Shown: positions 11,417 to 32,362 of the stretch, piece by piece
Layout of the letters: each line of letters starts with the position of its first letter
Numbering within the stretch: position 1 is the first letter of the stretch
Source: a virus
Lineage: Duplodnaviria > Caudoviricetes
Virus record (IMG/VR): IMGVR_UViG_3300022562_000719
Coordinates: 1 to 53,954 of that record
Direction: 5' to 3' (one strand)
Length of the DNA stretch: 53,954 nucleotides
The notes under the pieces: model-generated
The model's database searches: none
Told to the model about the DNA's origin: nothing
The model's input: the letters and a program-made list of their open reading frames with translations, nothing else
Translations under genes and position numbers: made by a program

Positions 11417-11417
11417 A

Positions 11418-14897: not shown

Positions 14898-14912
14898 TTG
14901 CCCGGCGCGCCT

Positions 14913-14957: not shown

Positions 14958-14975
14958 CCTGCACAGGAGGGTTCC

Positions 14976-15335: not shown

Positions 15336-15358
15336 TATGCACAACACAGGAGCACAAA

Positions 15359-17356: not shown

Positions 17357-18339
17357 CTGTGCAGATACATCTTGCAGCATGGGGTCAGAACGGTGCCGGC
17401 AGCGCGGCAATGGCAACCACAGGTCACGCGCGGGTGCTGTTGCCTGTTAGATATCCTCATGTGCTTGAATCCTACCATTACATGAGTGACAAAATTATCA
17501 CCGCAGCACGCGCTGACAACACCAAGTTCTTCCTGGACTCGGGTGCCTTTTCTATGTTCACCCAGGGTGCAAAAATCGATATTGAATCGTATGCCGGTTT
17601 TATTAAGACGCACCAGGACATCATAAAGGTTGCATCAAACCTGGACGACATTACTAAAACCGAAAAGATCTCCTACGCCAACCAGAAGCGCCTCGAAGAG
17701 CTTGGCTGCACGGTGCAACCCGTGTTTCATGCACGCGAGGACGAACGGTGGCTGGTTAAGTATTTGGACGAAGGTTATACATATATCTTTCTTGGTGGTC
17801 TGGTTCCAGAGACAACGGAGTGGTTGTTTGGTTGGCTTGACCATATCTGGCACAACTATCTAATCAAAGACGACGGCACGCCGCGAATACAGGTGCACGG
17901 GTTCGGTCTTACCAGCTTGCCACTTATGTTTCGGTATCCATGGTATTCGGTTGACTCAACCTCCTGGCTAATGACCGCAAGCTTTGGCTCCATATTTATG
18001 GACATGCCACAACCAAATGGCGCGGTAAAAGATTTCAAGGTTGATTTTTCCTCCACCTCCAGCAAGCGCCATGACATTGACTCCTGGCACTATAGCTCGC
18101 TTACTGAACCCGAGCGCCGTGTAGTGCTCGAGCGCCTCGAGCAGATGGAAGCTGACCGTCCCAAGCATCCGGAATTTGAAGCAGAGCTTGAAGGATACAT
18201 GCACTGCAAACAAGGATTCAACCCCGATGCACTAGCTGCGAGCTATGGCTGGCGACGCTACGCCAACATCGAGTACTTTCGCCGCGCTATGAACCGCAAG
18301 GTTGACCGCTTTGTACGCGAGCAGGAGACACTGTTTTGA
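17350..18339 (+). CDS. dpdA: DNA-guanine transglycosylase (TGT-like DpdA)
   Basis: FFLDSGAFS, PVFH, HGFG, PWYSVDSTSW; lies inside the que operon. Confidence 0.85.
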   Translation: MVAVQIHLAAWGQNGAGSAAMATTGHARVLLPVRYPHVLESYHYMSDKIITAARADNTKFFLDSGAFSMFTQGAKIDIESYAGFIKTHQDIIKVASNLDDITKTEKISYANQKRLEELGCTVQPVFHAREDERWLVKYLDEGYTYIFLGGLVPETTEWLFGWLDHIWHNYLIKDDGTPRIQVHGFGLTSLPLMFRYPWYSVDSTSWLMTASFGSIFMDMPQPNGAVKDFKVDFSSTSSKRHDIDSWHYSSLTEPERRVVLERLEQMEADRPKHPEFEAELEGYMHCKQGFNPDALAASYGWRRYANIEYFRRAMNRKVDRFVREQETLF

Positions 18340-19307
18340 AAGCAACCCTTGCATGGCTTAACGACGCATTGTCCGCTAAGGATTTGGTCGCGGGCATGAC
18401 ACACTACTGCGTGAGCGGTGGTGAGATCCTTGCGACGAATGGTAGGATAACAGCGGGGCACCCGTGGCCCTTTGACGGTGAGTTCCTGGTGCCCGGAAAT
18501 GAATTTGAAAAAATATTGAAACACATGCCTAACGACCCGATCATCACCGTTGACAAGGATTACATCAAATTAAGGTCTGGTAGATTCAGCGGCAAAATAA
18601 GTACGCTGCCGCTCGACCTGTGGAACCACAGCACGGGGATCGATGGGGTAATGTGGCGGCCTATACCGGGGACCCTGCTGGGGCTCCTGGAGCTGCTGCG
18701 CCCCTTCATATCGGACAACGCGGTGCACCCCTGGGCCACCACCGTTGCCCTACAGGATGGCTGGGCCTATGCCAGCAATAATATTGCTATAGCCGGAGCC
18801 CCTGGGAAGGGCTTAGGCGGCGTCCACGCCCTCCTCCCCACCTGGGCTATCGACTTCATTGTGGCACGCAGCCAGGGCTGTTCCCAATGGGCCTGGGCGG
18901 ACCATTTTGTAGCATTCAAGTGGGAAAATGGTGCATGGATGCGATCCCAGTTGGTTGTGGGGACCTTCCCCGAACGCGCTGCTGCAATGGTTAGGGCAGC
19001 CAAGGAAGAAAATCCTACCCAGGAAATTACCGCGGAATTTCGTATGGCGTTTGAAAAGGTGGTGGGGTTGACGGAAAGCACAGTTGAAATCTACGCGGAT
19101 CGTATAGAGGGGAAGTTTGGGAAAGCGATGATTGAAGATGCAGTTGCGTGCAAAGCACCCAGCGGCGCACCGTGCTCTGTGTGGGGTGCTGAGTACCTAG
19201 CGCCGGCCTTGCGTGTTGCAACACATTGGTCTCCCGAACTGTGGCCACAGCCAGTTCCATTCAAGGGGTCCGTGCTCTCAGGCTACGTCGTAGGACGGAG
19301 GATGTGA
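18336..19307 (+). CDS. Beta sliding-clamp-like protein
   Basis: 323 aa with repeated ILATNG / AYASNN, FLVPG and IKLRSGRFSGKI patterns reminiscent of DnaN-like phage proteins. Confidence 0.55.
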   Translation: MKATLAWLNDALSAKDLVAGMTHYCVSGGEILATNGRITAGHPWPFDGEFLVPGNEFEKILKHMPNDPIITVDKDYIKLRSGRFSGKISTLPLDLWNHSTGIDGVMWRPIPGTLLGLLELLRPFISDNAVHPWATTVALQDGWAYASNNIAIAGAPGKGLGGVHALLPTWAIDFIVARSQGCSQWAWADHFVAFKWENGAWMRSQLVVGTFPERAAAMVRAAKEENPTQEITAEFRMAFEKVVGLTESTVEIYADRIEGKFGKAMIEDAVACKAPSGAPCSVWGAEYLAPALRVATHWSPELWPQPVPFKGSVLSGYVVGRRM

Positions 19308-20008
19308 TGTTCGGCAAAAACCCGTTAATGAAAAAATCCAACGGCGACGGGTCCGAGCTGCACATCGTCAATGGCAGCCCGTTCCGCACAATACAGGGCG
19401 AGGGCCCTTACGCTGGACGACCCGCCGTGTTCCTACGCCTGCACGGCTGCAACCTTGCGTGCACGTTTTGCGACACCGACTTCAGCAACCCCGACGACCC
19501 CGTGGTAGAGCTATCCGAGATCATGCGACGTATCAAGGAACTATTCGGCAAAGAAAAAATCAAGCTCGTGGTGATCACGGGTGGTGAACCACTGCGGCAA
19601 AATATTGGCTTACTGCTGCTGGAGCTATCGTTCATCCCGCAAGCAATAATACAAATTGAAACCGCTGGCACGCTATGGCCGCATGACATCTACCGTCCGG
19701 TTGAAATGGTGTGCTCACCCAAGACACCCACGATCCACCCTAAAGTATTCGACCGCGCAGTGGCGTTTAAATACGTGATTGACTGCGAACAGGAACTCGA
19801 CGGGTTCATTCCGATAACGGCAACACAGGCTGATGCACGACCCGCGCGACTAGCTGCGCCGCGTCCAGGTGCGCCTGTGTATCTTTCGCCGATGGATACA
19901 TACGACTCCGCGCGTAACAAAGAAAACATCAAGCTCGTCGGCAAGCTGGCGTTACAGTATGGAGTCAACGCCGGCTTACAGATGCACAAGTTTTTTCAGG
20001 TAGACTGA
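19307..20008 (+). CDS. queE: 7-carboxy-7-deazaguanine synthase (radical SAM)
   Basis: TIQGEG, FLRLHGCNLACTFCDT, TGGEP, IETAG, SPK, LQMHK. Confidence 0.95.
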   Translation: MFGKNPLMKKSNGDGSELHIVNGSPFRTIQGEGPYAGRPAVFLRLHGCNLACTFCDTDFSNPDDPVVELSEIMRRIKELFGKEKIKLVVITGGEPLRQNIGLLLLELSFIPQAIIQIETAGTLWPHDIYRPVEMVCSPKTPTIHPKVFDRAVAFKYVIDCEQELDGFIPITATQADARPARLAAPRPGAPVYLSPMDTYDSARNKENIKLVGKLALQYGVNAGLQMHKFFQVD

Positions 20009-20009
20009 T

Positions 20010-21278
20010 ATGAAATACACCTTCCACACCACCGTCACCAACGTCGAGCAGCGCTGGCTCACCGACCACGTGACCAAGGAAGGCATCGAGCACAAGACCA
20101 GCATCGGCTGGTTCATCACGGTGGCATACGACAAGGGCATAAATTTTTCATGGGGCGTCGGCTTCGATGAACCGCAGATGAAGGCCGGAGACCCGTGCAA
20201 GATAACGCTGGAGGCGTTGAAGGTATGATCGAACGTAAATACACGGTACGCGAAATAGATGAATTGAGAGCTGTGCTTGAGGCGAAGTTTTTGACTGGCA
20301 GCTACAATAGCTTGGTCGCTCGAAGCCGCGACTATAGAACGGAAGAAAAATGCGCAGAGATAATGGCGATAGAAGCTATGGTGCGCACGCACATGGAAGC
20401 CGGTCATACGGCTGAAACACTGCTGGAGTCGCAAACTTTAAGGGATCAGGCATGACCGATAAAGAGCTACAACAAGCTGACGGCGTAATTGACTTCCTAA
20501 GTCGCTGTGGAAATGACGACATAGAAGAAGGTGTAAGTCAAATTCTTGGCCTTGGTTCGTCAAAAGATATTAGTAAGTTTCGAGAAGGAATACAGACGGC
20601 GATAAATAAGGCATCTCTCACACAAGACGAGCTGACCAGCCAACGAGGACCGCCGTCATTGGCTGCTGAATTGTTGAGGAGAAAAACGTGGACAAAATTT
20701 TTGGATACGAAATAGGTTTATTCTGGATACCTCGCTACGCGACATGGAATGAGGGCTGGTCATTCAAGTTCTGGCGTCTGCGTGTTCGCGTCAGGCGAAT
20801 GATAATCCAAAGGGAGATTTGAAGATGATCATTCTGTGGCTCTCGTTCTACGTCGGGCACCAAATCGGTTATCCAAATTTTATGGAGCCGTGGTCTTGGT
20901 GGGTGCTGCCGTATACGCTGACTTGTTTCTTTTTGTTCGTAGCTGAAATAGCCTTCTATGTCTTCATCGCCGCGTGGCTAGAGGATCGCAAGTATCAAAA
21001 GCGGAAGGAGCGACGAGATGCAGTCTGAAAATGTAACGCTGGATCTCGGCATCATAAAAGTTAAGGCAGTTCCGGTGAACGCCTACGCTGGATACGGCAA
21101 GAGGGTTCACGCAGATGCTGATGGAGCTTTGATTGATCTTGCCACATGTCTGCTCGCAGAGAAGTGGCTAAACGTAAGCAGCACAGGATTCCCGACCTTT
21201 GCGCAGTTGTTGGGGTACATTGAAAGAGACCCTGATCTGTTCGAGGCAGCAGTCAAGCTGGCAAAGTTTAAACGGTGA
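20010..21278 (+). CDS. Run of small hypothetical genes (20010-20228, 20225-20455, 20452-20715, 20819-21028 membrane, 21018-21278)
   Basis: Tightly coupled co-oriented ORFs with RBSs; no recognisable motifs. Confidence 0.6.
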
Positions 21279-21282
21279 CAAA

Positions 21283-21756
21283 ATGTGGACCGACGACCTA
21301 GTTGAGATGCTCAAGCGGCTGGTGCGCGACGGCTTGTCCGCCTCGCAGATGGCGAAGGAGCTGGGCGGCTTCACGCGTAACGCCGTCATCGCCAAGATCC
21401 ACCGCCTCAAAATAAGCAAAGAGTGGCCGCGCACCCGTGATCACGCGACGCCTGGAACGCGGCGTGTCACTAAGCGAGTGCGCACCGTCGTCACGCGCGC
21501 CCGCGTGCGCGAGGAGATCCCGCGCGAGCCGCTGCCCGAGATCAAGATGGACGACGTTCCGCTGGCGCAGCGCCGGTCGCTGATGCAGCTCGACGCGCGC
21601 CACTGCCACTGGCCGTTTGGAGATCCGCAGGAGCCTGGCTTCTTCTTTTGCGGAGCAGAGATCAAGTTAGGTGACGTTTACTGCCCGACGCACGCGGCGC
21701 GGGCCGTCGTCGGCGGGAGCCGGTACAAGAACTTCGTGAGGGTGGGATGGAGATGA
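21283..21756 (+). CDS. gcrA: GcrA-family cell-cycle transcription regulator
   Basis: MWTDD...GLSASQMAKELGGFTRNAVIAKIHRL and CHWPFGDP...FFFCG...YCPTH. Confidence 0.9.
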   Translation: MWTDDLVEMLKRLVRDGLSASQMAKELGGFTRNAVIAKIHRLKISKEWPRTRDHATPGTRRVTKRVRTVVTRARVREEIPREPLPEIKMDDVPLAQRRSLMQLDARHCHWPFGDPQEPGFFFCGAEIKLGDVYCPTHAARAVVGGSRYKNFVRVGWR

Positions 21757-22235
21757 CTGATATTTCAAAGGCAGCTATCGAGGCGGCAGCGAAGGCTACG
21801 CGCGAAGAAATCTGTCGACAATACCGAGAAGATGAACGCGGCAAATTTCCAGCTGGTGTACACTATTATGAAGAACATGTTATGCCTGCACTGATTGCCG
21901 AAGCCGCCCTCAAAGCCGCTGCGCCGTTCATGCCACTTATCCGAGAGCCATACACTGTCTGCAAATTCTGCCACAGCTTTGTCGGCGGGACTAAATGCAC
22001 GAATGAAACTTACCGGGACTGCTATCAATGGATTGTGTCGGAGCCATTTGAAATCGAACGATTGAAAGCCGCTGGCAGCTACAACGACGGCATCGAAGCG
22101 GCGGCGAAAGTGGCCGATAAAGCCATAGTAGAAGCAAAAGCAGACCGAGAAAAATTCAAACAAGATGAATACCTTTGGTGTGAGCAGGAGGCCAAAGGTA
22201 TTGCCGCCGACATCCGCGCACTCAAGAAGGAATAA
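21747..22235 (+). CDS. Hypothetical protein
   Basis: Phage-type GIEAAAKVAD...AADIRALK segment; CxxC. Confidence 0.65.
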   Translation: MEMTDISKAAIEAAAKATREEICRQYREDERGKFPAGVHYYEEHVMPALIAEAALKAAAPFMPLIREPYTVCKFCHSFVGGTKCTNETYRDCYQWIVSEPFEIERLKAAGSYNDGIEAAAKVADKAIVEAKADREKFKQDEYLWCEQEAKGIAADIRALKKE

Positions 22236-22240
22236 ACCAA

Positions 22241-22576
22241 ATGCACGATGGAATGAGCGACTATCCAAGTAAGCCAAAGTTCAATCCCGGCGACGTCGTT
22301 CAGCTCAAGAGCGGCGGCAAAACGATGACAGTGAAGTGCGAGGTGGACGAAGCCGCCGCGCGCAATGCCTACTCGCACATGGAGATCGGCATAGTCTGTG
22401 ACTGGCACGACGATGCAGGCATACCGCAGCAGGAGACGTTCGTGGCTGAGCAGCTTACGAAGGTTAGCGGGCGCAACCCGCGCGACGAGTTTGCTGCTGT
22501 TGAACGATTTCTTGACGCCGGCAAGCCGCTTTCAGCACTTAATTTCGCGCGAGAAATGGTGAAGGAGTATTCGTGA
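22241..22576 (+). CDS. DUF2158/YodC-like protein
   Basis: FNPGDVVQLKSGGKTMTV...CDW...F...L. Confidence 0.7.
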   Translation: MHDGMSDYPSKPKFNPGDVVQLKSGGKTMTVKCEVDEAAARNAYSHMEIGIVCDWHDDAGIPQQETFVAEQLTKVSGRNPRDEFAAVERFLDAGKPLSALNFAREMVKEYS

Positions 22577-23460
22577 TGGGCCAATGGGGACAGAAAATAA
22601 CGCTGATTAAGGACGACACCTGCATCCAGGTCAGCGCGCACGTCGACACTGGCGGCGCGTTCACGCCACTGTTCGACAGCTCCTCCGGCGTGCGCATGGC
22701 CGTCGGCGTAATTGATCATGTCATTCTCGATAGCTGGGACGGCGACCTCGCCGCAGCGGAGGCCATGATGGAGGATCTCAAGCGCAAGTACGTGGGCATG
22801 GGCTACGAGGAGTGGCTCAAGCTGGCTGCGCGAAGCCGTGCAATGCCGTATTCGAAGAAGGTGGACCAATGATGAAGCGCAAGACGCCGCCGTTAGGTAA
22901 GTTCGAGACGCTGACGAACGGCGAGTATTATCTGTCCGCCGAGACGTTCATGCACTACAGAGCGATCATCTTGCCGCTGCTCGGCAGATCGGCAATCATA
23001 AACGTGCGAGGCAAGCTGCCGGCGAGATTTCGCGCCATGCTGCGCAGGAACAACAAGCTGGCGAGAGAACGCAACGCCTACCAGCTCCGGCTGCAAAAGT
23101 ATTATGAACGAGAGCTAAGAGTAAAACCTAACACCATGAGTTACGGTGGACGCATACATGGAGAGGCGGACGACCGATAGGCACTAGGCTAAGTGCCGGC
23201 ACGAAATTACGAGTAACTGCCGACACCCTCTCCGCCAGTTAAGGAGACCGACGATGAAGAGCAGGTTTGCAAAGGGTACACCTGAATATGCAGAGGAGCT
23301 GCGCTTGGAGTTTGGCTGGCTGCTCGCTGGCCTATTAACAGGAATTGCGCTGCGTGTTATGGTAAACCTCGTCGCGGTGAACGGAGTACCAGAGATGACA
23401 AACGGCACGATCAGAATGGTTCCGCCTGACGAAGCGGTGCTGAGCGCACTGTTGGCTTGA
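22573..23460 (+). CDS. Three hypothetical genes (22573-22872, 22869-23180, 23254-23460)
   Basis: Coupled ORFs with RBSs. Confidence 0.55.
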
Positions 23461-23488
23461 GAAATAGTTTATAAAAAGGGAGCGGCAA

Positions 23489-23707
23489 ATGACAGAAGCA
23501 CAGATCAAATACATGGTTCAACGTTTTCTCAGCTGGCGATTGCCGGACGACTTCAGCCCCGATGCTGGAATCAGCTTCAAGGCCGAATATAATGAGAACA
23601 CACAATGGCCGTCGAAGCATGAACCAACCGGCACAAATCTATTTGACGCCGGGCAGGCAACCGCAATGGTTCGCTACATGATAGACGGGATGCCGAACGA
23701 TTTATAG
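23489..23707 (+). CDS. Hypothetical protein (array ORF)
   Basis: Bounded by repeats; ends ...NDL-stop inside the repeat. Confidence 0.75.
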   Translation: MTEAQIKYMVQRFLSWRLPDDFSPDAGISFKAEYNENTQWPSKHEPTGTNLFDAGQATAMVRYMIDGMPNDL

Positions 23708-23719
23708 ATAGGAGCGGCC

Positions 23720-24067
23720 GTGAAGATTAAAATCACCGAGCCCCGCATGAACCCATCCACATTAGATAATTCTGCCGCACATCGCTGGTTATGCGATATA
23801 GAGCGCAAGATTGACTTGGCAATGAAGGAAAACAAACAAGACAGAAAAAACATAATGAGAGAGAATAGTCCGATGTTTTTGCTCGAATGCGATCTCGAAG
23901 GAACCGGCGATTGGACGGTACTATGCGGGCACAAAACGCTAGAACAGGCCGAATCATGCATGAAGTATTTTCAGCCGATGGCGGCCTTCTCAGGCAAGCC
24001 AATGCGTATTCGAGCTGATGAAAAATCCGCCATTGAACGCTACAAAGATGCAGCGCAAGGATTGTGA
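23720..24067 (+). CDS. Hypothetical protein (array ORF)
   Basis: GTG after the repeat RBS; followed by an overlapping 28-aa ORF 24064-24150 that also ends NDL-stop. Confidence 0.65.
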   Translation: MKIKITEPRMNPSTLDNSAAHRWLCDIERKIDLAMKENKQDRKNIMRENSPMFLLECDLEGTGDWTVLCGHKTLEQAESCMKYFQPMAAFSGKPMRIRADEKSAIERYKDAAQGL

Positions 24068-24164
24068 CGGTTATCAAGAAAGGCCGGTTTAAAAAGAAAT
24101 GTGCGGCGGAAACGGAAATTTCGGATTGTTGGGGAATGAACGATTTATAGATAGGAGGCTGCCG

Positions 24165-24269
24165 ATGGAAAATTTTCCTGAATTGTTTGTGCTGGTCTTT
24201 GCTGCCGTTGTGCTTTCCGCGATCTGTATAGACCGCCTAAGAGGTGGCTATAATTTTGGCCGTTTATAA
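24165..24269 (+). CDS. 34-aa single-TM peptide
   Basis: MENFPELFVLVFAAVVLSAICIDRLRGGYNFGRL; repeat RBS before it, stop in the next repeat. Confidence 0.65.
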   Translation: MENFPELFVLVFAAVVLSAICIDRLRGGYNFGRL

Positions 24270-24281
24270 ATAGGAGCGGAT

Positions 24282-24362
24282 ATGAACGATGCCTTTTGGT
24301 TAGCACTAATGGCTACAGGACTTTGCGCCATTGTTGCCATCGCGATACTAAAGCTTAAATAG
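24282..24362 (+). CDS. 26-aa single-TM peptide
   Basis: MNDAFWLALMATGLCAIVAIAILKLK; bounded by repeats. Confidence 0.65.
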   Translation: MNDAFWLALMATGLCAIVAIAILKLK

Positions 24363-24373
24363 GAGCGGCAACA

Positions 24374-24487
24374 ATGAATATCTGGCGATGCGAAAAATGT
24401 GGCACCGATTCAGACGGCCCACCATGTCCATACTGTAAGCAGTGGCCGGATTGTAAGCAGTGGCCGGATAAACAGAAGCATAAATAA
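24374..24487 (+). CDS. 37-aa zinc-ribbon peptide
   Basis: CEKC...CPYC; 18-bp tandem duplication at 24434-24469. Confidence 0.65.
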   Translation: MNIWRCEKCGTDSDGPPCPYCKQWPDCKQWPDKQKHK

Positions 24488-24496
24488 GGAGCGGCG

Positions 24497-24661
24497 ATGG
24501 ATGAAATGCTCGCAATGATAGATAAGATTCTTCACGATGAAGAAGCGGCTTATTATCAGCGCATCGCCGTGCTTAGAGTGGAGCGCGAGCGCATTATTCG
24601 CACGATGGCGGAAAAGAAAATGCTCGAACCGCCACCACCAGTCATTATCAAAGCCCAATAG
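24497..24661 (+). CDS. 54-aa hypothetical protein
   Basis: MDEMLAMIDK...; bounded by repeats. Confidence 0.65.
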   Translation: MDEMLAMIDKILHDEEAAYYQRIAVLRVERERIIRTMAEKKMLEPPPPVIIKAQ

Positions 24662-24670
24662 GGAGCGGCA

Positions 24671-24850
24671 ATGAATGACGCCGAATTATTACGCAAACAT
24701 TGGCCAGAATCTTTGCCGTGGGCCATTCGGGAGTTAATAATCGGAAATATGGTAGTTGGTAATTTTTCGCAGGCGTTTGCCGCCGATCTTGGGTTTGCGA
24801 TAGCAAAACGCCTTGAATCCGTTTCTGAGCAAGAACAGAAGCAGCCATAG
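24671..24850 (+). CDS. 59-aa hypothetical protein
   Basis: MNDAELLRKHW...; bounded by repeats. Confidence 0.65.
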   Translation: MNDAELLRKHWPESLPWAIRELIIGNMVVGNFSQAFAADLGFAIAKRLESVSEQEQKQP

Positions 24851-24862
24851 GAGCCACGTCAC

Positions 24863-25045
24863 ATGATGAAAATTCAAGAGTATGCCGACATAGCGAAACG
24901 GCTGGCCGAATTTTATTCGGATGATGAGGCTACCGAGTGGATGACAAGCCCTCATCCGCAGCTTGAGGGTCGCCGCCCGGTCGATTGCAAGTTCTCAGAG
25001 GTCGCGCCAATCCTCGACCGGCTTGAGTCGGGCGCATACTTATAA
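24863..25045 (+). CDS. Stand-alone Xre/MbcA/ParS antitoxin toxin-binding domain (DUF2384-like)
   Basis: FYSDDEATEWMTSPHPQLEGRRPVD...LDRLESGAY. Confidence 0.7.
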   Translation: MMKIQEYADIAKRLAEFYSDDEATEWMTSPHPQLEGRRPVDCKFSEVAPILDRLESGAYL

Positions 25046-25059
25046 AAAGGGAGCGGTAA

Positions 25060-25251
25060 TTGAAAAGCGCGCTACATCATGCGGCCAAACGAAAAAAAGA
25101 AATCATAATTGATACACTCCGCAATCCCACTCTTTTGCAATACAGCTTAACGACGCGAAAAATAATCGCCTTATACCAAATCGGCGGGTGGGATGAAGTA
25201 GATGGATATATTAGAAAAATAACCATTGATCCGACTAAAAGAAAGGGCTGA
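25060..25251 (+). CDS. Hypothetical protein (array ORF)
   Basis: TTG after the repeat RBS. Confidence 0.55.
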   Translation: MKSALHHAAKRKKEIIIDTLRNPTLLQYSLTTRKIIALYQIGGWDEVDGYIRKITIDPTKRKG

Positions 25252-25262
25252 CATGGTTTTGT

Positions 25263-25335
25263 GCGGCGATAGCACATTGATAGTGCGCCCGAACCAATCG
25301 GGAGAAGGCGGTTTAATTCCGACCTCGCCGCTCCA
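25263..25335 (+). tRNA. Non-canonical tRNA-like element (tRNA-Gly-like acceptor stem)
   Basis: GCGGCGA/TCGCCGC acceptor + U discriminator + CCA. D stem GCAC/GTGC. Anticodon stem CCCGA/TCGGG with a 5-nt loop. T loop TTTAATT with a bulged stem. Confidence 0.6.
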
Positions 25336-25436
25336 TGCGGCTCATCAGAGGATTATTCGGGTTGCGAGCGAGTTTGAATGGCCGGCGTCAGCTGAACTCC
25401 CATTGAGAACGAATGTATAAATAAGGAGCCTCAAAT

Positions 25437-25473
25437 ATAAAAAGACCCGCCGCCTCATTCAAGAAGCGGCGGG
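25437..25473 (-). terminator. Rho-independent terminator ending the late arm
   Basis: 8-bp GC stem (25446-53 / 25466-73) followed by TCTTTTTAT on the minus strand, where the two arms converge. Confidence 0.8.
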
Positions 25474-25512
25474 CAAGTCGATCAGGGAGGAAGGCCGTTG
25501 ACCCCAGGCCCA
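25437..25512 (-). ncRNA. suhB/MmgR-like small RNA
   Basis: Minus strand UUCCUCCCU-gauc-GACUU-g followed by a CCCGCCGC/GCGGCGGG hairpin and U-tract; 5' end uncertain. Confidence 0.6.
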
Positions 25513-25554
25513 AGGGGCTGGCGCTAGACCCAGGACGGAAACTAGCGCAAGCTG

Positions 25555-26010
25555 CTATCTCGAAGCATAATGTCTATGGTGTCTCTTGGCTGATGCGTAG
25601 CGCGAGCCGCACGGTGCCGCAGTTACCTGCGCCTGAATGTGCCCGCGATCTCCGTTGCACCACTCTGCACCACTCTGCGCTCCGTGTGCACGCGCCACCT
25701 TTGCCTCGATGGCTGGCGACGGCAGATGACAGCGCCGGTCGACCACGCCGCGAGCGTACTGGCAGAGGTCTAGGGCCAATCCCCACGGGTGCATGTGACG
25801 GATCGAACCGTGCCCCTTTCTGTAACCACCCATGAAGCGGATCGCCGCACCGTAATTATTTTCCAAGTCATCGATGATAGCCTGCGCCGTCGCGGCGAAT
25901 TTCGCCGACACTTGCGCAGTCGCTCCGGTCTTGTGGGATCTGATCGTCTCGGACGAGGCTGGAAGGCTCAGTAGGCAAAGCAATATTGTAGCGCATATTG
26001 TCCTTGTCAC
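25555..26010 (-). CDS. Exported peptidase M15-like cell-wall hydrolase
   Basis: Signal peptide; GGYR...HPWGLALD (HxxxxxxD)...DRGH. Confidence 0.7.
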   Translation of the reverse strand: MTRTICATILLCLLSLPASSETIRSHKTGATAQVSAKFAATAQAIIDDLENNYGAAIRFMGGYRKGHGSIRHMHPWGLALDLCQYARGVVDRRCHLPSPAIEAKVARAHGAQSGAEWCNGDRGHIQAQVTAAPCGSRYASAKRHHRHYASR

Positions 26011-26028
26011 TTTTAGTCTCCATCATTG

Positions 26029-27199
26029 TTACATTGGTATGACGGCGAGCCACACGAAGAAGCCGCCGACGAGAAACATCGACACCAGCAGCCCGAACGC
26101 AACGGTGATGGCTGCGGTGGCGATAGGCGACGTGTGCGACGGTTGCGGGTGAAAGCCGTCACGGTGAACCTTTCTGGTCGGGTATATGGAGAGCATCAGT
26201 CCAGCACCACGGTGTCTACTGGGCCGAAGCTTACGCGCAGCGGCCACAAGTATTGAGTGAAGTTGCAGTAGAAGTCATTCGTTAGATAAATCTTGGCTGG
26301 GCCGGGAGCGATGTCGTCAGGCATCACGCGCTTGTGCCCTGAGATCAGGGTGCCCTTAATCTCGACTGAATCCTCTGTGATCAACCCGAATGCAGCGGTC
26401 ATCGGCTCTCCAACCCAAATCTTTCCGGATGAGTCGCGCAGGTACAGGTAAATGACGCCGGGACATCTGCGTGGCAGGTTGTAATATTTCCACTGAAGCT
26501 GGAACAGCTCGCCGTGCCTTATCTTTGCCGGTATGGTGTGACCTTCAGTAAGCAAGAACGGAGGCTCGCGGTCCATCGCCACCCACGTTATCGGTCCGAT
26601 CACGAAAATGGCGAACAGCGCTGCGTAAATGTTCTTGCGCAGAAAGTAACCAATGGCCACGTAGATGTCGTGCTTCAGCAGGCGAACCCATTCGACCATT
26701 CAGTGTCTCCCGACCCAGTAGTCAGTTAAGAAGGATCTCAGCCCACCGACGATTGCCATGACGATAGCGATCCACATGCCCCAAGCCTTCAGCCGTTCGC
26801 GCAGCATCTTACGAAACCAATTCCGCCCCTCGTCGTAATGAATAATACGACGCAACACGCGCAGTTCGTCATCTGAGAGGGGAGGTTCGGTCACTTACTT
26901 AGTTCGATCTTGTGTTGCCGCAGTTGCTTCAGCGTTTCGGTCGCGTCGTCTATGCGCTTCTGGTTGAGCGCGCGTACTGACGGGTCTTTCAGCAGCTCCT
27001 GCGTGATGATAGCGTCGCTCTGCGCGCGAGCGTAGATGTCGATTGCGTTCTCGGTCTGCTGGCGGTCGAGCCGCTTGACGTCGCTGCTCCAGGCTGGCGT
27101 GTCCCAACCCATAGTGTGCCAGAATCCGATGAGCGCGATGATGGCCATGGCCACCGCGCCAGCTCGCACGATATACCGAAACATCAGCTTGAAATTCAC
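26029..27199 (-). CDS. Four small membrane proteins (26029-~26199, 26196-26699, 26700-26894, 26891-27199)
   Basis: Coupled ORFs, each with one hydrophobic segment, downstream of the spanins. Confidence 0.6.
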
Positions 27200-27201
27200 C
27201 G

Positions 27202-27330
27202 CTACCTCCTCTTGCGCTTAACCTTGTCCATGCGCTCGCGGACGGTCATCGTCGGGTGCGCCTCAGCATAGGCGCGCGTCACCACGCGCCCGGTCTTCGC
27301 GCTGCGGTAGATGTACTTATGCTTGGTCAT
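27202..27330 (-). CDS. Small basic protein
   Basis: YRSAKTGRVVTRAYAEAHPTMTVRE; AAGGAG RBS. Confidence 0.65.
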   Translation of the reverse strand: MTKHKYIYRSAKTGRVVTRAYAEAHPTMTVRERMDKVKRKRR

Positions 27331-27740
27331 GACGTAGGCTCCTTGTGCTTTCGATTCTTGAACGTCTTGATCGGATGGCGGATCTTTTGCCACACCGTCG
27401 TCCTGACGGTCACGGTCGCAGGCTTGGTCGGCGAAAGTAGGTCAGGCTTGGTCGGCGGAGTCACCGTCACCTGCGAGGCAGAAACGCGGTCCAGCTCCGC
27501 TGGTCGCTGCAACGGTCTCGTCCAGCCGCAGCCGGCAACGCCTGCCTCCGTTATCTTGTCCGCCCATATCTGGTCGAACTTGGCGCGTCCCTTGATCTGG
27601 TATTCAGGTCGAGGAAAAGAGGAGCAGGAGCCTTCCAGCGAGGCGAAGTTGGTCTTAGTGGCACACGCCGAGAGTAGTGTCCCAGTTGCCACCAATACGA
27701 TTACACTCGTCGATCTGGCGCGTAATTTTTTCCACGGCAC
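27327..27740 (-). CDS. o-spanin (Rz1-like lipoprotein)
   Basis: Lipobox LLSAC, Pro-rich, overlaps the i-spanin. Confidence 0.7.
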   Translation of the reverse strand: MPWKKLRARSTSVIVLVATGTLLSACATKTNFASLEGSCSSFPRPEYQIKGRAKFDQIWADKITEAGVAGCGWTRPLQRPAELDRVSASQVTVTPPTKPDLLSPTKPATVTVRTTVWQKIRHPIKTFKNRKHKEPTS

Positions 27741-27915
27741 GTTTAGCCTCCTCGTTCTTGTTGGCTACTGCCACGACGGCGGCGTTCCAACCCTTGACGT
27801 AATAGTGATCTGCGAACATCCCCCATCCTATCAGGAAGCCGATAGCGATTGCCACGCTGATCGCGATGGTGCGACCAATTTTCGTCTCAATTAGAAAAAG
27901 AAAGATTCCGCTCAT
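27655..27915 (-). CDS. i-spanin (Rz-like)
   Basis: N-terminal TM plus helical region, directly after the endolysin. Confidence 0.7.
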   Translation of the reverse strand: MSGIFLFLIETKIGRTIAISVAIAIGFLIGWGMFADHYYVKGWNAAVVAVANKNEEAKRAVEKITRQIDECNRIGGNWDTTLGVCH

Positions 27916-28443
27916 TCAATCCTCCCTAAGACACCACGGGTTCTCGCCCCACATGGCATCAGTTCGACGGTTGATTAACCCGCGCAAGACCTTGCCATCG
28001 GCACGGATATATCTAACAAGATAAGCGCAGCCAGCTTTTATATCACCTGCTCTGAAGGCCTCCCCAACGCCACCCTCGCATATCCGCTTGGGCCCCAAGT
28101 TATAGCTCGCGCTTATAAGTGCCGCCTGCCTATGGGGTGGCATATCCGGAAAACTTGGAATGCATTTAACGAGCGGGTCAATATATTTTGGTAGTTCCTG
28201 CTTTAACGCCTCTTGGCATTGCTCATGGGTAAAATGCTGGCCAACCTTTAGCCCTGGCCAATCGTAATTCGTAATACCATTACAAACCGTAATCACTCCG
28301 GCCGGGTCAAACGAATTGTGCTTCGCTATCGGGTCTTCTCCCTCCCAATGCGTTATCAAAACGAGAGCAAGCGCAAGACCAGCCGCCGAAGCGCCGCCGG
28401 CATATCTGGCCTTATTGGTTTTGATATGTTCAATTACTGGCAT
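27916..28443 (-). CDS. Endolysin, GH24 lysozyme (SAR-type N-terminus)
   Basis: Gly/Ala-rich TM then WEG...DPAGVITVCNGIT, SYNLG, GLINRR. Confidence 0.9.
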   Translation of the reverse strand: MPVIEHIKTNKARYAGGASAAGLALALVLITHWEGEDPIAKHNSFDPAGVITVCNGITNYDWPGLKVGQHFTHEQCQEALKQELPKYIDPLVKCIPSFPDMPPHRQAALISASYNLGPKRICEGGVGEAFRAGDIKAGCAYLVRYIRADGKVLRGLINRRTDAMWGENPWCLRED

Positions 28444-29063
28444 GGTTCAAAAACTATATCCAATGCAATCCGGCCAGCCTCACGATAGCCGGGCAATAAG
28501 TTTCTAATCTTATCAAATGACCCCCAGCCATATTGCTCGCCTAATCCTTGTTCTTCAATCTGGATAACAGGTCTATATTTTTCGATTGTCTTGACCGCCC
28601 CGCATAACGCAGGGTATTCCATCCCCTCAACATCAAACATCAAAAAGTCACAAGCAGGCAAATTCAAATCGTCAATCCTATATACCGGAATATCGCCAGC
28701 GGCTTTTGCTCCGTAATGGCCTCCGGTATATTTGTGTTTTTCAAGCTGCAATGGCCCCCTATCATTCCCGATAAAGCCGCGCGCCGCGTACACGTTCGGC
28801 AACGCCGCATTGCGGGCCAGACAATGGAAATTAATGTCGTCTGGTTCAAACGTGTAAACGGAATTGAAAACGCCGGCTAAATATTTAGCCCATACACCGC
28901 AATGGCCACCAGCTTGTATTACTACGTTTTGCGCTTTGGTTAGGCTTATTGCCAGCGATGTGTCTGATATGTGGTCAAGATAGTATTTCTTCCGTTTTTC
29001 CGCCATTTTCCTTGGCCACCAGTATCCCTCATCTCGGATCAGTGGAAATTGCGCTTTTGCCAT
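28434..29063 (-). CDS. FkbM-family SAM methyltransferase
   Basis: VIQAGGHCGVW, VYTFEP, DVEGME...PVIQIE. Confidence 0.85.
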   Translation of the reverse strand: MAKAQFPLIRDEGYWWPRKMAEKRKKYYLDHISDTSLAISLTKAQNVVIQAGGHCGVWAKYLAGVFNSVYTFEPDDINFHCLARNAALPNVYAARGFIGNDRGPLQLEKHKYTGGHYGAKAAGDIPVYRIDDLNLPACDFLMFDVEGMEYPALCGAVKTIEKYRPVIQIEEQGLGEQYGWGSFDKIRNLLPGYREAGRIALDIVFEPCQ

Positions 29064-29293
29064 TAGTCGTTTTCAAATACCTTTTGCGCGACTATTCGGG
29101 AAACAAAGGCCGCCGCTATAATAATGAATAGGATAGCCGAGAACGCCCAAGGCGGAATGTTCCAATAAGGTTGGGCAATAGGAAGCACCGCCTCGCAACC
29201 TGAAAGAATGCCAGCCAAGGCAAGTAGTCTTATGCTCCAGGCATGGCGCAATATCTTACGCCAGTCGTGGCGCAGTTTTAGATTTCGGCGCAT
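29063..29293 (-). CDS. Holin
   Basis: DWRKILRHAWSIRL, two TM segments, RIVAQ; start uncertain. Confidence 0.75.
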   Translation of the reverse strand: MRRNLKLRHDWRKILRHAWSIRLLALAGILSGCEAVLPIAQPYWNIPPWAFSAILFIIIAAAFVSRIVAQKVFEND

Positions 29294-29366
29294 TAGCTTG
29301 TGAACATTATGGAAAAGAAAAGGAAGCTTAGGCAAAAAAGAAAGGAAACCGCAAGAATTCTGTCAA

Positions 29367-30137
29367 TCATACCACGCCCGCGCTTGTCAGACTTCCGACC
29401 AATGAAAATGACCCGCCACCGAGTTGATTGGTAGCAAAGCTAGACGGCGTTCCATTGGAACTAAACAGGATGGAACCGCCGGCCGGGAAGTTTACCGGAT
29501 CAACCGGCCTACCTGTCTCGCTTATGAACTGCCGCCTTGTTGCTTCCGGGATTGTATTGGTTCCGTCATGTAGTTTTACACCAGGAGCAATCCAAACATC
29601 GGCAACGTCCATAGTAGGACCATATGCATAACCGTCAATGTCGCCAAATATGAAACGATTTCCATTAAAAAGGCTTGTGGTTGACGCTGGGCCAAGATCA
29701 GAATTAGTTGTAGGGGCAACTAATGTATCGTTGATATACATTAGCATTATCTTGTTTCCTTGGGATTGATTGGTATCGACGGAAAACAGCCAATGATTGA
29801 AATTGCTATAGTCCAGCCCCGTCCAATGACCGGAAAATGATGTAACGGATGGCGTATCGTAAACGAATTCAAACCCACTTCCTGAATTGCTCATTTCAGG
29901 TTCATAGTTCCATGTCGGGGAAGTGACCCATAACCCGGCCTGATAATTAAGGGGGTCCATAAAACCACGCGACCAAATGGACATAGAAAAATAACCATTG
30001 GTATCTGAACAACTAAGACTAGCGCAATCTAGCGCAGTGGGGCCACCACCCTGTTTGCTGCCGTCAAAATGAACCGCGTTGCAGACATATCCTGCGGTAA
30101 TAAATGAAAGACCGGAAGCCGAATCGCCAAAAAGCAT
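29367..30137 (-). CDS. Lectin/LamG-like tail-tip or receptor-binding protein
   Basis: AVHFDG, SMSIW, HWLFSVD, MYIND pattern; last tail gene. Confidence 0.6.
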   Translation of the reverse strand: MLFGDSASGLSFITAGYVCNAVHFDGSKQGGGPTALDCASLSCSDTNGYFSMSIWSRGFMDPLNYQAGLWVTSPTWNYEPEMSNSGSGFEFVYDTPSVTSFSGHWTGLDYSNFNHWLFSVDTNQSQGNKIMLMYINDTLVAPTTNSDLGPASTTSLFNGNRFIFGDIDGYAYGPTMDVADVWIAPGVKLHDGTNTIPEATRRQFISETGRPVDPVNFPAGGSILFSSNGTPSSFATNQLGGGSFSLVGSLTSAGVV

Positions 30138-30138
30138 T

Positions 30139-31440
30139 TTATGCCGTCACGTTGTCCGGGCGATAAATAATCCAGAAACCGGCATATACGGTTTGCGTAT
30201 CATCGGCCAAGGCTCCAATTGGGGTACAGGTCCGCCCGTTCCATACGATGGTGGGTGTGTCTGCGTTTAATGTATATGCCAATTGCTTTTCACATTCTGC
30301 GGCCATTTGATTATTTGGATTTACATATAACGGTAATAACCCATGAATAAAATCACTTATTGGCCCATCACCGTAAAATCGTTTTTCGGCAGTTAAATTA
30401 GTACCCCACGCCGACCATGGTGCAGACGTTGGCAATTTTGATTGTGGCACATTCCCGGGCGCAGGGCTTCCTTGCGTCCAATCCCATGGCGGGTTTGTTC
30501 CTGCCGCGCTACCATAATAAGGCCCCGTAGCACATAAGGCCGGGGGAACCCCCAAAGTCGTACTCCACCCCGTAGGACTCGCGCTCCAATAGCCGTCAAA
30601 CGAAATAACGCTATGGCCCAACCCCGTTGACCCCGTAAAGTCTCCAGCACCATCCAATGTTGAATATGCATCTACCCAATAATTCATAGTTTGCGTAGTA
30701 TATGTCGAAAGGCAATACATTTGTCCGCTAAAATCGTTATCTGTAGCCGAACCATAATAATTTCCGCTCCAGCCAATGAAATTATTTATCATCTGAAATC
30801 GATGATGGACAACTATATAAACGCCTTCATTGAAGTTTACGATATTCTGAAATGGGTCGGTCCTTATCGGCTTTTCGTCGCTACCATCATAGCCTGAAAT
30901 CAACTCGTCATCATCGGTCGGTGCCCATGACATATCGCCCATTTCAGGATTGCCAGTGAATGTATGAAGGCTTTCCTGGTATCGGTCTGCTTTATCTATG
31001 GTCCTGAATTGATCTAAAAATTCAACCTCTATCCAAGGGCCGTCATCATCAATAACGCCCGGCGTTTCATAATACCTATAGGAGTGGGTTTTTTCGTGGG
31101 CACTGAAATGCGGGGGTATTGAGTCCGAGCCGGTCTTATTGTCGAAAGTGTAGATGTGCTCTTGTGACCGATTATGCGGGTCAATCACTTTCCATTCGTC
31201 AATGCGCTCAACTTTCAGGGGGTCGCCGGATGTGTCGTTTTCTCCATCTATGCTTGGGTACAGTTCATCTACATGTACTGCCCTATCGGCGGATTCTGTA
31301 TTATTAATAGAAAAATCATATTGCTGATAACGGGAATGGGGGTCAATAGAGGAAAACCCATTCAAAAGCGTAATGGGTATTTGAGTCCCGCCGGGTAGCG
31401 TTATTATCTTCCTCGCCCGCTTGCGACCAATAATAGTCAT
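30139..31440 (-). CDS. Minor tail protein
   Basis: 433 aa with a thrice-repeated ID...RxQ motif; AT-richer region. Confidence 0.55.
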   Translation of the reverse strand: MTIIGRKRARKIITLPGGTQIPITLLNGFSSIDPHSRYQQYDFSINNTESADRAVHVDELYPSIDGENDTSGDPLKVERIDEWKVIDPHNRSQEHIYTFDNKTGSDSIPPHFSAHEKTHSYRYYETPGVIDDDGPWIEVEFLDQFRTIDKADRYQESLHTFTGNPEMGDMSWAPTDDDELISGYDGSDEKPIRTDPFQNIVNFNEGVYIVVHHRFQMINNFIGWSGNYYGSATDNDFSGQMYCLSTYTTQTMNYWVDAYSTLDGAGDFTGSTGLGHSVISFDGYWSASPTGWSTTLGVPPALCATGPYYGSAAGTNPPWDWTQGSPAPGNVPQSKLPTSAPWSAWGTNLTAEKRFYGDGPISDFIHGLLPLYVNPNNQMAAECEKQLAYTLNADTPTIVWNGRTCTPIGALADDTQTVYAGFWIIYRPDNVTA

Positions 31441-31441
31441 A

Positions 31442-31759
31442 TTATACTGTCGTTTCTATCAATCGGCCCCAAATGTCCCAATCATTCGTATCACCAACTC
31501 GCTTAAGCCCGACTACGCAACCCTGACCAGGGGAAGCATTATTGCAATTATATTGCGGATTAATTGCCGCTGGTTCTGAGGTGGTGGATATTATTTCGTA
31601 AGTGCATCCTGAAGATGTTTCATCCCTAATATGAAGTTCACACCAACTGCCAAAATCTTGCGAAGGGTCGATGGTTATAGCACAAGATGCACCGGTAAAT
31701 CTAAGGTAGCGCCCCTCATCATCCGGGGTCGGGCTCGCCGTCGATGGAAGTAAAGTCAA
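31442..31759 (-). CDS. Tail-associated domain, possibly a frameshifted continuation of 31719-32156
   Basis: DEGRYLRFT...LKRVG...WDIWGRL; no RBS at the TTG. Confidence 0.5.
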   Translation of the reverse strand: MTLLPSTASPTPDDEGRYLRFTGASCAITIDPSQDFGSWCELHIRDETSSGCTYEIISTTSEPAAINPQYNCNNASPGQGCVVGLKRVGDTNDWDIWGRLIETTV

Positions 31760-32156: not shown

Positions 32157-32362
32157 GTTGCCTTCTTCTCGGTTGGCCGCTTCTGATAATAATACGTGAT
32201 GGTCAACGACACGGTGCCAGAGAATGTCTTCGGACCGCCGTTCTCACCGCAGATTATCTTGACGTTGTCCGGCGTCTTGCTCTCCGACGCGGCGGGAGGT
32301 ACCGGAGCTGGCGTATAGACCGGAGTCTGAAACGGTCGAACTATGCCGTCCAAGCTACCCAT
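32153..32362 (-). CDS. Small tail-region protein
   Basis: Coupled to both neighbours. Confidence 0.6.
   Translation of the reverse strand: MGSLDGIVRPFQTPVYTPAPVPPAASESKTPDNVKIICGENGGPKTFSGTVSLTITYYYQKRPTEKKAT

Follow-up and report, generated by a model that had tools for sequence, protein, structure and literature searches.

What does a short sequence do that recurs between small genes with no other likeness to one another? The question is raised by a block in the IMG/VR virus record IMGVR_UViG_3300022562_000719 (Caudoviricetes), a linear record estimated to be 89% complete that was analyzed over its whole length of 53,954 nucleotides (nt) and is called the window here. Between positions 23468 and 25432 the window carries ten copies, all on the plus strand, of an 18- to 25-nt element that combines a stop codon with a Shine-Dalgarno (SD) sequence and has the core GGAGCG. 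The copies are interspersed with 11 small open reading frames (ORFs), and the coordinates bear out the preliminary description of this DNA, which had counted ten stop-plus-ribosome-binding-site (RBS) repeats between about 11 unrelated ORFs of 26 to 115 amino acids (aa). That description went on to propose an integron-like or accordion array. It appears probable instead, although well short of certain, that the elements are linkers for translation initiation and, at the same time, joints of short homology at which cassettes are exchanged.

The ten copies, termed linkers below, are listed with the hairpin that follows them and with their identities to a second phage, G001, a complete phage record of 49,003 nt with direct terminal repeats.

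23468 to 23488, plus strand: linker copy 1 (type 1: GTTTATAAAAAGGGAGCG plus spacer), before ORF1; 18/18 identical to G001 43611 to 43628
23695 to 23719, plus strand: linker copy 2 (type 2), coding for the N-D-L-stop end of ORF1 and carrying the SD of ORF2; 22/22 identical to G001 43945 to 43966
24138 to 24164, plus strand: linker copy 3 (type 2, degenerate core GGAGGCTG); 20/20 identical to window 23695 to 23714 and to G001 43945 to 43964
24262 to 24281, plus strand: linker copy 4
24353 to 24373, plus strand: linker copy 5
24478 to 24496, plus strand: linker copy 6
24654 to 24670, plus strand: linker copy 7 (type 3: CAATAGGGAGCG); 12/12 identical to G001 43353 to 43364
24834 to 24862, plus strand: linker copy 8 (type 4: AACAGAAGCAGCCATA plus GGAGCCAC); counted among the ten copies as 24844 to 24862; 15/16 and 9/9 identical to G001 44087 to 44102 and 44113 to 44121
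25040 to 25059, plus strand: linker copy 9 (type 1); 16/16 identical to G001 43613 to 43628 and 22/24 to copy 1
25415 to 25432, plus strand: linker copy 10, an orphan without a start codon behind it; 16.5 bits in leave-one-out scoring
25445 to 25474, no strand assigned: hairpin terminator between the convergent early (plus) and late (minus) operons; bidirectional, −23.6 kcal/mol, z −3.15

The linkers follow one layout: an A/T-rich stretch, usually with the TAA or TAG stop of the upstream gene (in type 2 also its last three codons), then GGAG, then CG(G). The core GGAGCGG is exact in seven of the ten copies and degenerate in three, at 24154 (GGAGGCTG), 24850 (GGAGCCAC), and 25425 (GGAGCCTC). 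Successive ORFs are separated by 9 to 14 nt at eight junctions and by 28 nt at the first, before ORF1. In all nine copies with a gene behind them, GGAG lies 5 to 9 nt from the start codon. Stops in or beside copies are TAA or TAG in nine of nine cases, and the three copy-free junctions all have TGA; the 50 long ORFs of the window end in TGA (25), TAA (16), or TAG (9). The claim that the repeat usually supplies the upstream stop and the next RBS thus stands for nine copies and fails for the ORFs at 24064 and 25253, which have no linker in front and are coupled to the preceding gene in that their start codons overlap or abut its stop. By its position, the element is as good as shown to be the RBS plus stop of each mini-gene. 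As described before, GAACGATTTATAGATAGGAG is exact at both 23695 and 24138, so that a 20-nt exact direct repeat flanks ORF2 and ORF2b on both sides, and the last copy, at 25415, has no gene behind it and is followed by the hairpin. The array therefore has a copy at either end. Beyond such identities, the copies differ freely from each other within the window.

The element is specific to this block. All seven plus-strand GGAGCGG sites of the window lie within 23479 to 25050, for which a P of ∼4e−9 was calculated (seven uniformly placed sites all within 1,571 nt), and the three minus-strand sites lie elsewhere; the motif is accordingly not equally common at all gene starts. A 21-column weight matrix was made from the ten copies and run on both strands with a threshold of at least 12 bits; it returned the ten copies and a single extra site, at 52427. 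When each copy was scored by a matrix that left it out, seven of ten reached at least 12 bits, the weakest being those at 24850 (0.9), 24154 (6.8), and 24273 (7.5). In a crude gene call, genes outside the block did not use the GGAGCG element. The different RBS style perceived earlier is thus real: the motif is peculiar to the block instead of serving the phage as a general RBS, and a second family, CACAGGAG, is found elsewhere. The block is also AT-richer, as had been noted (GC 0.479 versus 0.545 in the window), although 5.8% of equal-sized windows are equally AT-rich.

Signals other than those for translation were sought at the junctions. RNA folds showed no extra structure relative to shuffled sequence (z −0.49 to +1.41), no inverted repeats or attC-like fold were found there, and no stem-loop terminator lies inside the element, the final hairpin being the only stable one of the folds tested. 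No promoter pattern recurs at the copies; the scan gave 9 sites in 7 kb against 5.1 ± 2.1 expected, one of them overlapping a copy. Rfam had no match anywhere in the window. No tyrosine or serine recombinase was detected (PF00589 and PF00239, in a record 89% complete), whereas control genomes matched (14 of 14 for PF00589), and the complete G001 record likewise has no PF00589 match and no integrase. Given the lack of a junction fold, promoter, Rfam match, or recombinase, the linkers are neither attC-type sites nor the promoter and stem-loop elements (PeSL) of T4-type phages.

The genes between the linkers all have the same orientation and span 23489 to 25420.

23489 to 23707, plus strand: ORF1, 72 aa, stand-alone form of a very widespread conserved domain of ∼70 aa, no Pfam family
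23720 to 24067, plus strand: ORF2, 115 aa, GTG start, near-orphan
24064 to 24150, plus strand: ORF2b, 28 aa, GTG start overlapping the ORF2 stop (GTGA), ending N-D-L-stop within copy 3
24165 to 24269, plus strand: ORF3, 34 aa, one hydrophobic helix
24282 to 24362, plus strand: ORF4, 26 aa, one hydrophobic helix
24374 to 24487, plus strand: ORF5, 37 aa, CxxC...CxxC, internal 18-nt tandem duplication
24497 to 24661, plus strand: ORF6, 54 aa
24671 to 24850, plus strand: ORF7, 59 aa
24863 to 25045, plus strand: ORF8, 60 aa, stand-alone Xre/MbcA/ParS C-terminal toxin-binding domain (Pfam PF09722, 29.7 bits; cut-off, 24.5)
25060 to 25251, plus strand: ORF9, 63 aa, TTG start, GC 0.40, codon score tied with an antisense frame
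25253 to 25420, plus strand: ORF10, 55 aa, start 1 nt past the ORF9 stop, no linker in front

None of the 11 resembles another (best blastp E value, 0.14). When the six frames were ranked by codon usage, with 20 long genes as the training set, the annotated one came first in 8 of the 11 ORFs, shared first place in two (25060 and 25253), and did not come first in one (24374). Since the ORFs show no paralogy and neither a recombinase nor an attC-like hairpin is present, the block is neither an integron nor an accordion, and both of these earlier proposals fall.

The evidence that carries the argument comes from G001. The preliminary description had suggested building a motif profile and scanning related phages for variable content with breakpoints at the repeat. 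The weight matrix was run over 130 loci (1.18 Mb), 42 of which had been selected by the motif pattern itself, and gave 72 matches of at least 12 bits; only locus L002 had three at 18 to 21 bits, within 602 nt. L002, which was found via a 151-aa protein encoded beside the array (58% identity), belongs to G001. The scan thus yielded a single other phage with linkers, one in which the cassette content differs and the breakpoints lie at the repeat edges. At an E value of ≤1e−4, only four proteins are common to G001 and the window, namely, a polymerase (24% identity), a lysozyme (31%), the 151-aa protein (57%), and a helicase (31%); a fifth match comes from an antisense frame within the helicase gene. 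Nucleotide matches between G001 and a 17.5-kb stretch of the window's early region are confined to 224 nt of the 151-aa gene (67%) and to 22 nt at 100%, and the latter are window 23695 to 23716, that is, linker copy 2.

Between a 109-aa gene and the helicase gene, G001 carries three mini-genes (64, 108, and 52 aa), with a linker before each and before the helicase. These linkers correspond to window copies as follows.

G001 linker CAATAGGGAGCG: window copy 7, 12/12
G001 linker GTTTATAAAAAGGGAGCG: window copy 1, 18/18, and copy 9, 16/16
G001 linker GAACGATTTATAGATAGGAGCG: window copy 2, 22/22, and copy 3, 20/20
G001 linker AACAGAAGCAGTCATA...AGGAGCCAC, before the helicase gene: window copy 8, 15/16 and 9/9

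When the DNA of the two mini-gene regions is compared, linkers account for every one of the top local matches (22/22, 20/20, 18/18, 16/16, 15/16, 12/12, and 15/16). By contrast, none of the five G001 small proteins tested matched a window ORF at an E value of ≤1. Identity between the phages sets in within the final codons of the gene upstream and stops 2 to 5 nt short of the start codon. In type 2, window ORF1, window ORF2b, and the 108-aa ORF of G001, whose three proteins are unrelated, share an N-D-L-stop end coded by the identical GAACGATTTATAG. The 18-nt core of type 2, allowing up to two mismatches, is present in G001 and was found in none of 49 other viral records searched whole, and searches of the linkers against GenBank phages gave no match better than an E value of 0.3. 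By this comparison, the linkers predate the genes between them and are the more stable of the two.

The 151-aa protein is the best-conserved protein of the two phages (57%; window 25555 to 26010, minus strand; G001, reverse complement, 41768 to 42241). It has a signal-peptide-like N terminus and no family match, and its gene lies ∼0.1 to 1.1 kb from the linker arrays in both phages, on opposite relative strands.

Contigs of sequencing runs were compared with window 14000 to 33900, and joints with a side of fewer than 30 letters at a likeness below 95 were regarded as unreliable. Run X2, from soil, held 21% of the sampled words and contains a mosaic relative, in which stretches with 0 to 27 differences per 0.6 to 1.7 kb alternate with others with 87 to 115. 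Among the X2 contigs listed, one matches the window from 23469 rightwards, which is the 5′ edge of copy 1 to within a base, after at least 255 unlike letters. Run X1 held 96% of the words, with about 44% of the run read; it may be the source sample and is therefore not independent. In X1, a long contig spanning ORF1 ends at 23698, and a 639-nt contig (depth, 11) has the exact 22-nt linker (23695 to 23716) joined to other sequence, its last 54 nt matching 25361 to 25414. We take this contig only as another context that appears to hold the 22-nt linker. Stretches of the array without X1 contigs (about 23699 to 24579 and 25080 to 25360) were dismissed as uninformative gaps given the part of the run that was read, and runs X3 and X4 held next to none of the words, their joints coming from other organisms.

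The GGAGCG linkers are not the only sequences of this kind in the window. A second extended RBS family, CACAGGAG(CA), also given as CACAGGAGCA, has 13 sites, all within 1.5 to 15.3 kb and on both strands, and 12 of the 13 directly precede start codons, including those of the helicase, a QueD-like gene, and the DNA polymerase (ATG at 9365).

9842 to 15352, plus strand: nine copies of CACAGGAG(CA), each before a start codon, including helicase and QueD-like genes
1546 to 9511, minus strand: four copies of CACAGGAG, three before starts; the copy at 9511 has no clear ORF behind it and lies in a divergent intergenic region

Both families are confined to the early/replication region (1.5 to 25.4 kb), so that the phage uses block-specific extended ribosome-binding motifs. 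As the second family precedes core replication genes, conserved start-associated sequences are here not exclusive to cassettes. G001 also has a second start-associated family of its own, AAGGAGCTGGAAA, at three ATG starts (39867, 40754, and 42252; G001, reverse complement, 39850 to 42252).

Taken together, these results suggest the following explanation. The block would be the hyperplastic 3′ end of the early operon, with nine mini-genes and one empty site each led by a start-associated linker. On the polycistronic mRNA, the linker, whose position is observed, would act as the translation-initiation region of its mini-gene; stop and SD are only 0 to 6 nt apart, which argues that it couples upstream termination to the next initiation. 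All four linker subtypes recur in G001, with identities of up to 22/22 nt, around three entirely different mini-genes, and this retention around unrelated genes suggests that the linkers act as joints, where homologous recombination, general or relaxed, would replace, insert, or remove mini-genes. Since copies vary freely within the window, functional constraint alone fails to explain the exact identities of 16 to 22 nt between the phages. Either the genes between fixed linkers were replaced or the linkers moved with neighboring pieces; both would put the breakpoints at linker edges. Homologous or relaxed recombination at short homologies during coinfection would be the simplest mechanism. The window phage does encode the Sak4-like annealase, the single-stranded DNA-binding protein (SSB), and the Cas4-type exonuclease that the preliminary description had named as possible agents, and it was also right that there is no integrase; these three proteins could plausibly do the work without a site-specific recombinase. 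Any ORF landing between two linkers would automatically get an RBS and give its neighbor a stop. The joint model is in keeping with the orphan last copy, with the presence of copies at both array ends, and with the 20-nt direct repeat that flanks ORF2 and ORF2b.

Several observations weigh against linkers as joints. The X2 relative skips from 20220 to 20821 and from 21754 to 22576, with ends at gene starts that have no linker, so that genes of this lineage can turn over without linkers. In X1, the joint at 25361 falls within ORF10 instead of at a linker, although it is a short-sided, low-likeness joint and thus unreliable. No linker precedes 2 of the 11 ORFs, the comparator genomes found to carry linkers number one, G001, and the translation activity of the linkers is inferred from their position only. 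The CACAGGAGCA family fronts core genes (helicase and polymerase) whose order is colinear in X2 over 14220 to 15800; mobility of cassettes does not follow from a conserved start-associated sequence alone. Finally, 16 to 22 nt is short for efficient homologous recombination. The earlier claim that cassettes are gained, lost, or shuffled at the repeat is hence upheld in part: G001 has wholly different content with identity bounded by the repeat edges, and likeness to X2 starts at 23469, but X2 differences also occur at linker-free gene starts. As to what the skipped segments hold, 20220 to 20821 contains three small genes, and 21754 to 22576 contains a 162-aa gene and a DUF2158 gene.

A pure expression signal without a role in gene exchange, that is, a strong, homogenized translation-initiation and coupling region under selection for (re)initiation by ribosomes at the distal end of the long operon, with mosaicism of the ordinary gene-boundary type, would correspond to the start-associated sequences (SAS) of actinophages in the strict sense. 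The position and spacing of an RBS, the unstructured leaders, the second family in front of core replication genes, and the X2 differences at linker-free boundaries all speak for it, as does the RBS position of the SAS repeats of Cluster K and Cluster EF actinophages in the accessible text of PMC3203893 and PMC7302621. It is nonetheless unlikely. Function tolerates variation, as the differing window copies attest, yet three subtypes are identical over 16 to 22 nt between phages whose shared proteins are 24 to 57% identical; moreover, the identity extends into codons of unrelated upstream genes (the N-D-L tail), and the orphan copy has no gene to translate. Less credible still, although compatible with the joint model, is a recognition site, formed by the conserved positions beyond the SD core, for a trans-acting factor, such as an RNA-binding repressor of phage or host origin or an endoribonuclease, that would separate the temporal control or mRNA processing of the CACAGGAGCA and GGAGCG blocks. 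The T4 RegA operators and RegB cleavage at GGAG are parallels, and the conserved C or CG(G) that follows GGAG would add no base pairs with the usual 3′ end of 16S rRNA (the host 16S may differ). The presence of two block-specific families in one genome served by one host ribosome points the same way, as do the two families of G001 (AAGGAGCTGGAAA at three sites and the GGAGCG linkers), and the authors of the SAS paper raised this possibility in the part of PMC3203893 available. Against such a factor, the two phages share no candidate, their four common proteins being the polymerase, the helicase, the lysozyme, and the secreted-looking 151-aa protein, and exact conservation of several distinct subtypes would be unexpected for a single operator.

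The remaining alternatives have next to no standing. An integron-like array, in which a site-specific recombinase moves cassettes at an attC/attI-type repeat, would account for the one-directional, promoterless-looking small ORFs bounded by repeats and for the empty terminal site. It is close to refuted by the absence of PF00589 and PF00239 matches in the window record and of PF00589 in the complete G001, where controls match, and by junctions that have no inverted repeats or hairpins and gaps of only 9 to 14 nt; the repeats are 18- to 25-nt translation-initiation regions. TAA or TAG followed by GGAG is a common, economical arrangement of stop and RBS, and chance or generic SD likeness might be invoked on that ground, or else an accordion of one duplicated gene. 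Both are already refuted by the clustering statistics, the lack of paralogy, and the identity across phages, and we accord them a vanishingly small probability. A bolder extension of the joint model is possible but doubtful, namely, a recombinase-free "translational cassette system" in which an annealase would exchange a shared pool of mini-genes at a few stop-plus-SD adaptors of 16 to 22 nt. Each adaptor would end the upstream ORF, sometimes donating its last codons, and a captured ORF would be expressed at once. The array would then be a fast-turnover locus for host-takeover or antidefense peptides, for example, the MbcA-type toxin binder.

How does the block relate to systems already described? 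In the modular theory of Susskind and Botstein, short conserved boundary or linker sequences between lambdoid phage modules are said to guide homologous exchange. The present linkers are similar in being short conserved gene-boundary sequences that would guide the exchange of nonhomologous modules; they differ in forming a defined stop-plus-SD unit, ten in tandem between mini-genes, common to phages that are otherwise barely alike. Integron arrays also have one-directional, small, unrelated, promoterless ORFs, a recurring site, and expression from upstream, but no IntI-type recombinase or attC hairpin is present here, the repeats are RBSs, and exchange, if any, would be homologous. PeSL cassettes of T4-type phages are reportedly the subject of Comeau et al. 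(2014, PMC4122927). The PeSL, as far as the accessible text goes, are ∼100 bp long and contain a σ70 promoter and a terminator stem-loop, and minicircles have been shown experimentally (Arbiol et al. 2010, PMC2839356). Like them (PMC2839356, same portion), the linkers are short conserved regulatory elements that flank ORFans in hyperplastic regions and supply expression signals, the differences between related phages map to the elements, and recombination between elements is proposed (for PeSL, to delete, insert, and circularize). ORFan differences bounded by the elements, which characterize PeSL, were found here on one comparator genome and one contig end (X2, 23469). The window linkers differ in being 18- to 25-nt translation signals (stop plus SD) with no promoter or hairpin, and they are known from sequence alone.

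The closest formal counterpart is the SAS. In the available part of the Cluster K paper (Pope et al. 2011, PMC3203893), SAS are 13-nt sequences in 11 to 19 copies of one orientation, 3 to 7 bp before starts in the nonstructural half of the genome; they contain AGGAG and sometimes an upstream stop, are conserved beyond rRNA pairing, and occur occasionally without a gene. Cluster EF Microbacterium phages have a similar motif (PMC7302621, as far as accessible), and in the text available of both papers its role is stated to be unknown. The likeness is considerable: an asymmetric conserved motif in ten copies, all on the plus strand, lies just upstream of starts with an SD core inside, in the nonstructural part only, before genes of different families, and with an occasional gene-less copy. 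The Cluster K consensus GGGATAGGAGCCC, as given in the accessible part of PMC3203893, has ATAGGAGC in common with the window copies. The differences are that the window host is probably alphaproteobacterial and not of the actinobacterial group; that the window has no upstream 17-bp inverted repeat of the extended SAS (ESAS) type, which accompanies about half of the Cluster K sites (PMC3203893, same portion); that the window copies are packed in a contiguous array with 9- to 14-nt gaps; and that there are two families per genome. Exact identity of subtypes between distant phages, bridging unrelated genes, is an aspect not described for SAS in the available parts of PMC3203893 and PMC7302621. 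The block is thus SAS in form and PeSL-like in evolutionary behavior, while it belongs to neither by their defining features. A literature search found no account of stop-plus-RBS linkers common to distant phages, although subscription journals were mostly outside the search and this is no proof of absence.

SAS have been known in actinophages since 2011 without an assigned function, and the same kind of element now appears in what is probably a quite different host group. The subtypes are letter-identical between two phages that share almost nothing else, and the genes between them are unrelated, which suggests a testable role, in that short linkers with translation signals would keep gene exchange viable and have the exchanged gene expressed without further help. 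They would do with translation signals what PeSL-mediated shuffling does with transcription signals, and they would give modular phage evolution an actual example of the long-standing linker idea. If this is true, virome scans for linkers could harvest accessory and antidefense mini-genes, and the turnover of ORFan-rich regions would be easier to account for.

Turning to the mini-genes themselves, Pfam and PHROGs searches covered 9 of the 11 ORFs and the upstream 68-aa gene, and ORF2b and ORF10 were scanned against PADLOC only. PHROGs gave nothing for the nine ORFs and the 68-aa gene, PADLOC gave no match for any of the ten ORFs scanned, and of the 11 only ORF8 (24863 to 25045) has a family match. 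The antitoxin domain ascribed to this ORF was well founded: in addition to PF09722, it matches MbcA residues 55 to 113 in PDB 6fkg_C (E value, 2.4e−4). No N-terminal helix-turn-helix or Xre domain is present and no RES or ParT-type toxin gene adjoins, the neighboring ORFs being without family match. With only 60 aa and such neighbors, ORF8 is a stand-alone binding domain and not part of a toxin-antitoxin pair. It is near-orphan, with one non-self relative (62 aa, 65% identity) on a 641-nt contig. Judged from the domain, ORF8 could be a phage countermeasure against RES- or ParT-type toxin-antitoxin defense. The suggestion that the block is an antidefense peptide library has this one ORF in its favor, out of 11, and the PADLOC result against it, and is a guess.

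ORF1 is the sole part of the array DNA with a match in GenBank phages; its nucleotide sequence is 73.5% identical to the first half of a gene that encodes 147 aa in Rhizobium phage RHph_I1_23. Its domain is found in 2,954 cluster representatives at an E value of ≤1e−3, in proteins of 71 to 486 aa and in N-terminal, middle, or C-terminal position; the top matches are 65 to 77% identical, and ORF1 represents the minimal stand-alone form. The domain is common in IMG/VR, where 298 of 332 pattern matches were confirmed, and none of 80 IMG/VR loci that encode such proteins had a linker beside the gene. ORF1 has no Pfam or PHROG family, the Atlas search gave nothing, and Foldseek with the AlphaFold model (pLDDT, 77) found no match in the PDB (best E value, 9.3). 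The idea that ORF1 was truncated by the linker was rejected; the conserved domain ends in ...GMP and is fully contained in ORF1. For ORF2, the sole non-self relative is P0002 (79 aa), 61% identical to residues 52 to 115. It covers only the C-terminal half, from Met52, and ORF2 may be a two-part protein or have a second translation start at Met52.

The two transmembrane peptides reported earlier (ORF3 and ORF4) are backed by a hydropathy of 2.5. The zinc ribbon assigned to ORF5 holds as far as its CxxC...CxxC pattern goes, the RecR_ZnF match being subthreshold (E value, 0.079). The tandem duplication within ORF5, at window 24425 to 24460, repeats the peptide CKQWPD.

Around the array, the minus-strand genes at 0.2 to 9.5 kb encode an antiterminator-like protein, a primase/polymerase, the Cas4-domain exonuclease, SSB, the Sak4-like annealase (5917 to 6723), and DNA polymerase. 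The rightward plus-strand early operon runs for roughly 16 kb, from ∼9.56 kb to the hairpin at 25445 to 25474, and encodes small proteins, a UvrD-type helicase, a 7-deazaguanine set, a clamp-like protein, a GcrA-like regulator, and a DUF2158 protein; from 25555 on, the minus strand carries lysis and structural genes. The nearest isolated phages in GenBank by terminase or helicase are Sinorhizobium phi2LM21 and Bradyrhizobium BDU-MI-1, at only 42 to 47% aa identity, and Pseudomonas Queuovirinae are ∼38 to 41% identical. The host is probably an alphaproteobacterium, to judge by the GcrA gene and by the best phage matches, which are to phages of Rhizobium, Sinorhizobium, and Bradyrhizobium.

Other leads to relatives or similar elements were followed. 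No syntenic close relatives were found in IMG/VR scans with the 122-aa upstream protein, GcrA, the lysozyme, or ORF2. DpdA as a query led to no more than one contig, 37% identical, which came up in IMG/VR and again in a metagenome-assembled genome, and the frequent ACCACA words of that contig were rejected as coding repeats. A metagenome scan with the 151-aa protein yielded three short contigs without linkers, one of which, L046, has only two GGAGCG-type RBSs. The IMG/VR pattern scan with TATARATAGGAGCGG gave 42 single matches, a chance level; it missed G001 because that phage has GGAGCGT or GGAGCGA. The L043 candidate proved to be a terminator, and the TAGGAG clusters of L031 and L034 are not before start codons. 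In PaMx25, of the Queuovirinae, two or three TAGGAG(A/C) starts are all that resembles such a family.

Three observations stand apart from the array. A GcrA-like cell-cycle regulator is encoded by the phage at window 21199 to 21756 (Pfam GcrA; E value, 3e−37). A 7-deazaguanine DNA-modification cluster at window 14976 to 20008 comprises QueD-like, GTP cyclohydrolase I, QueC, DpdA-like transglycosylase, and radical-SAM QueE-like genes, as in Queuovirinae phages. The unrelated IMG/VR contig L076 has at 672 to 8866 four copies of a palindromic 16-nt motif, GCAGGAACCTGCAAAC, which was set aside as unrelated to RBSs and is probably a regulatory site.

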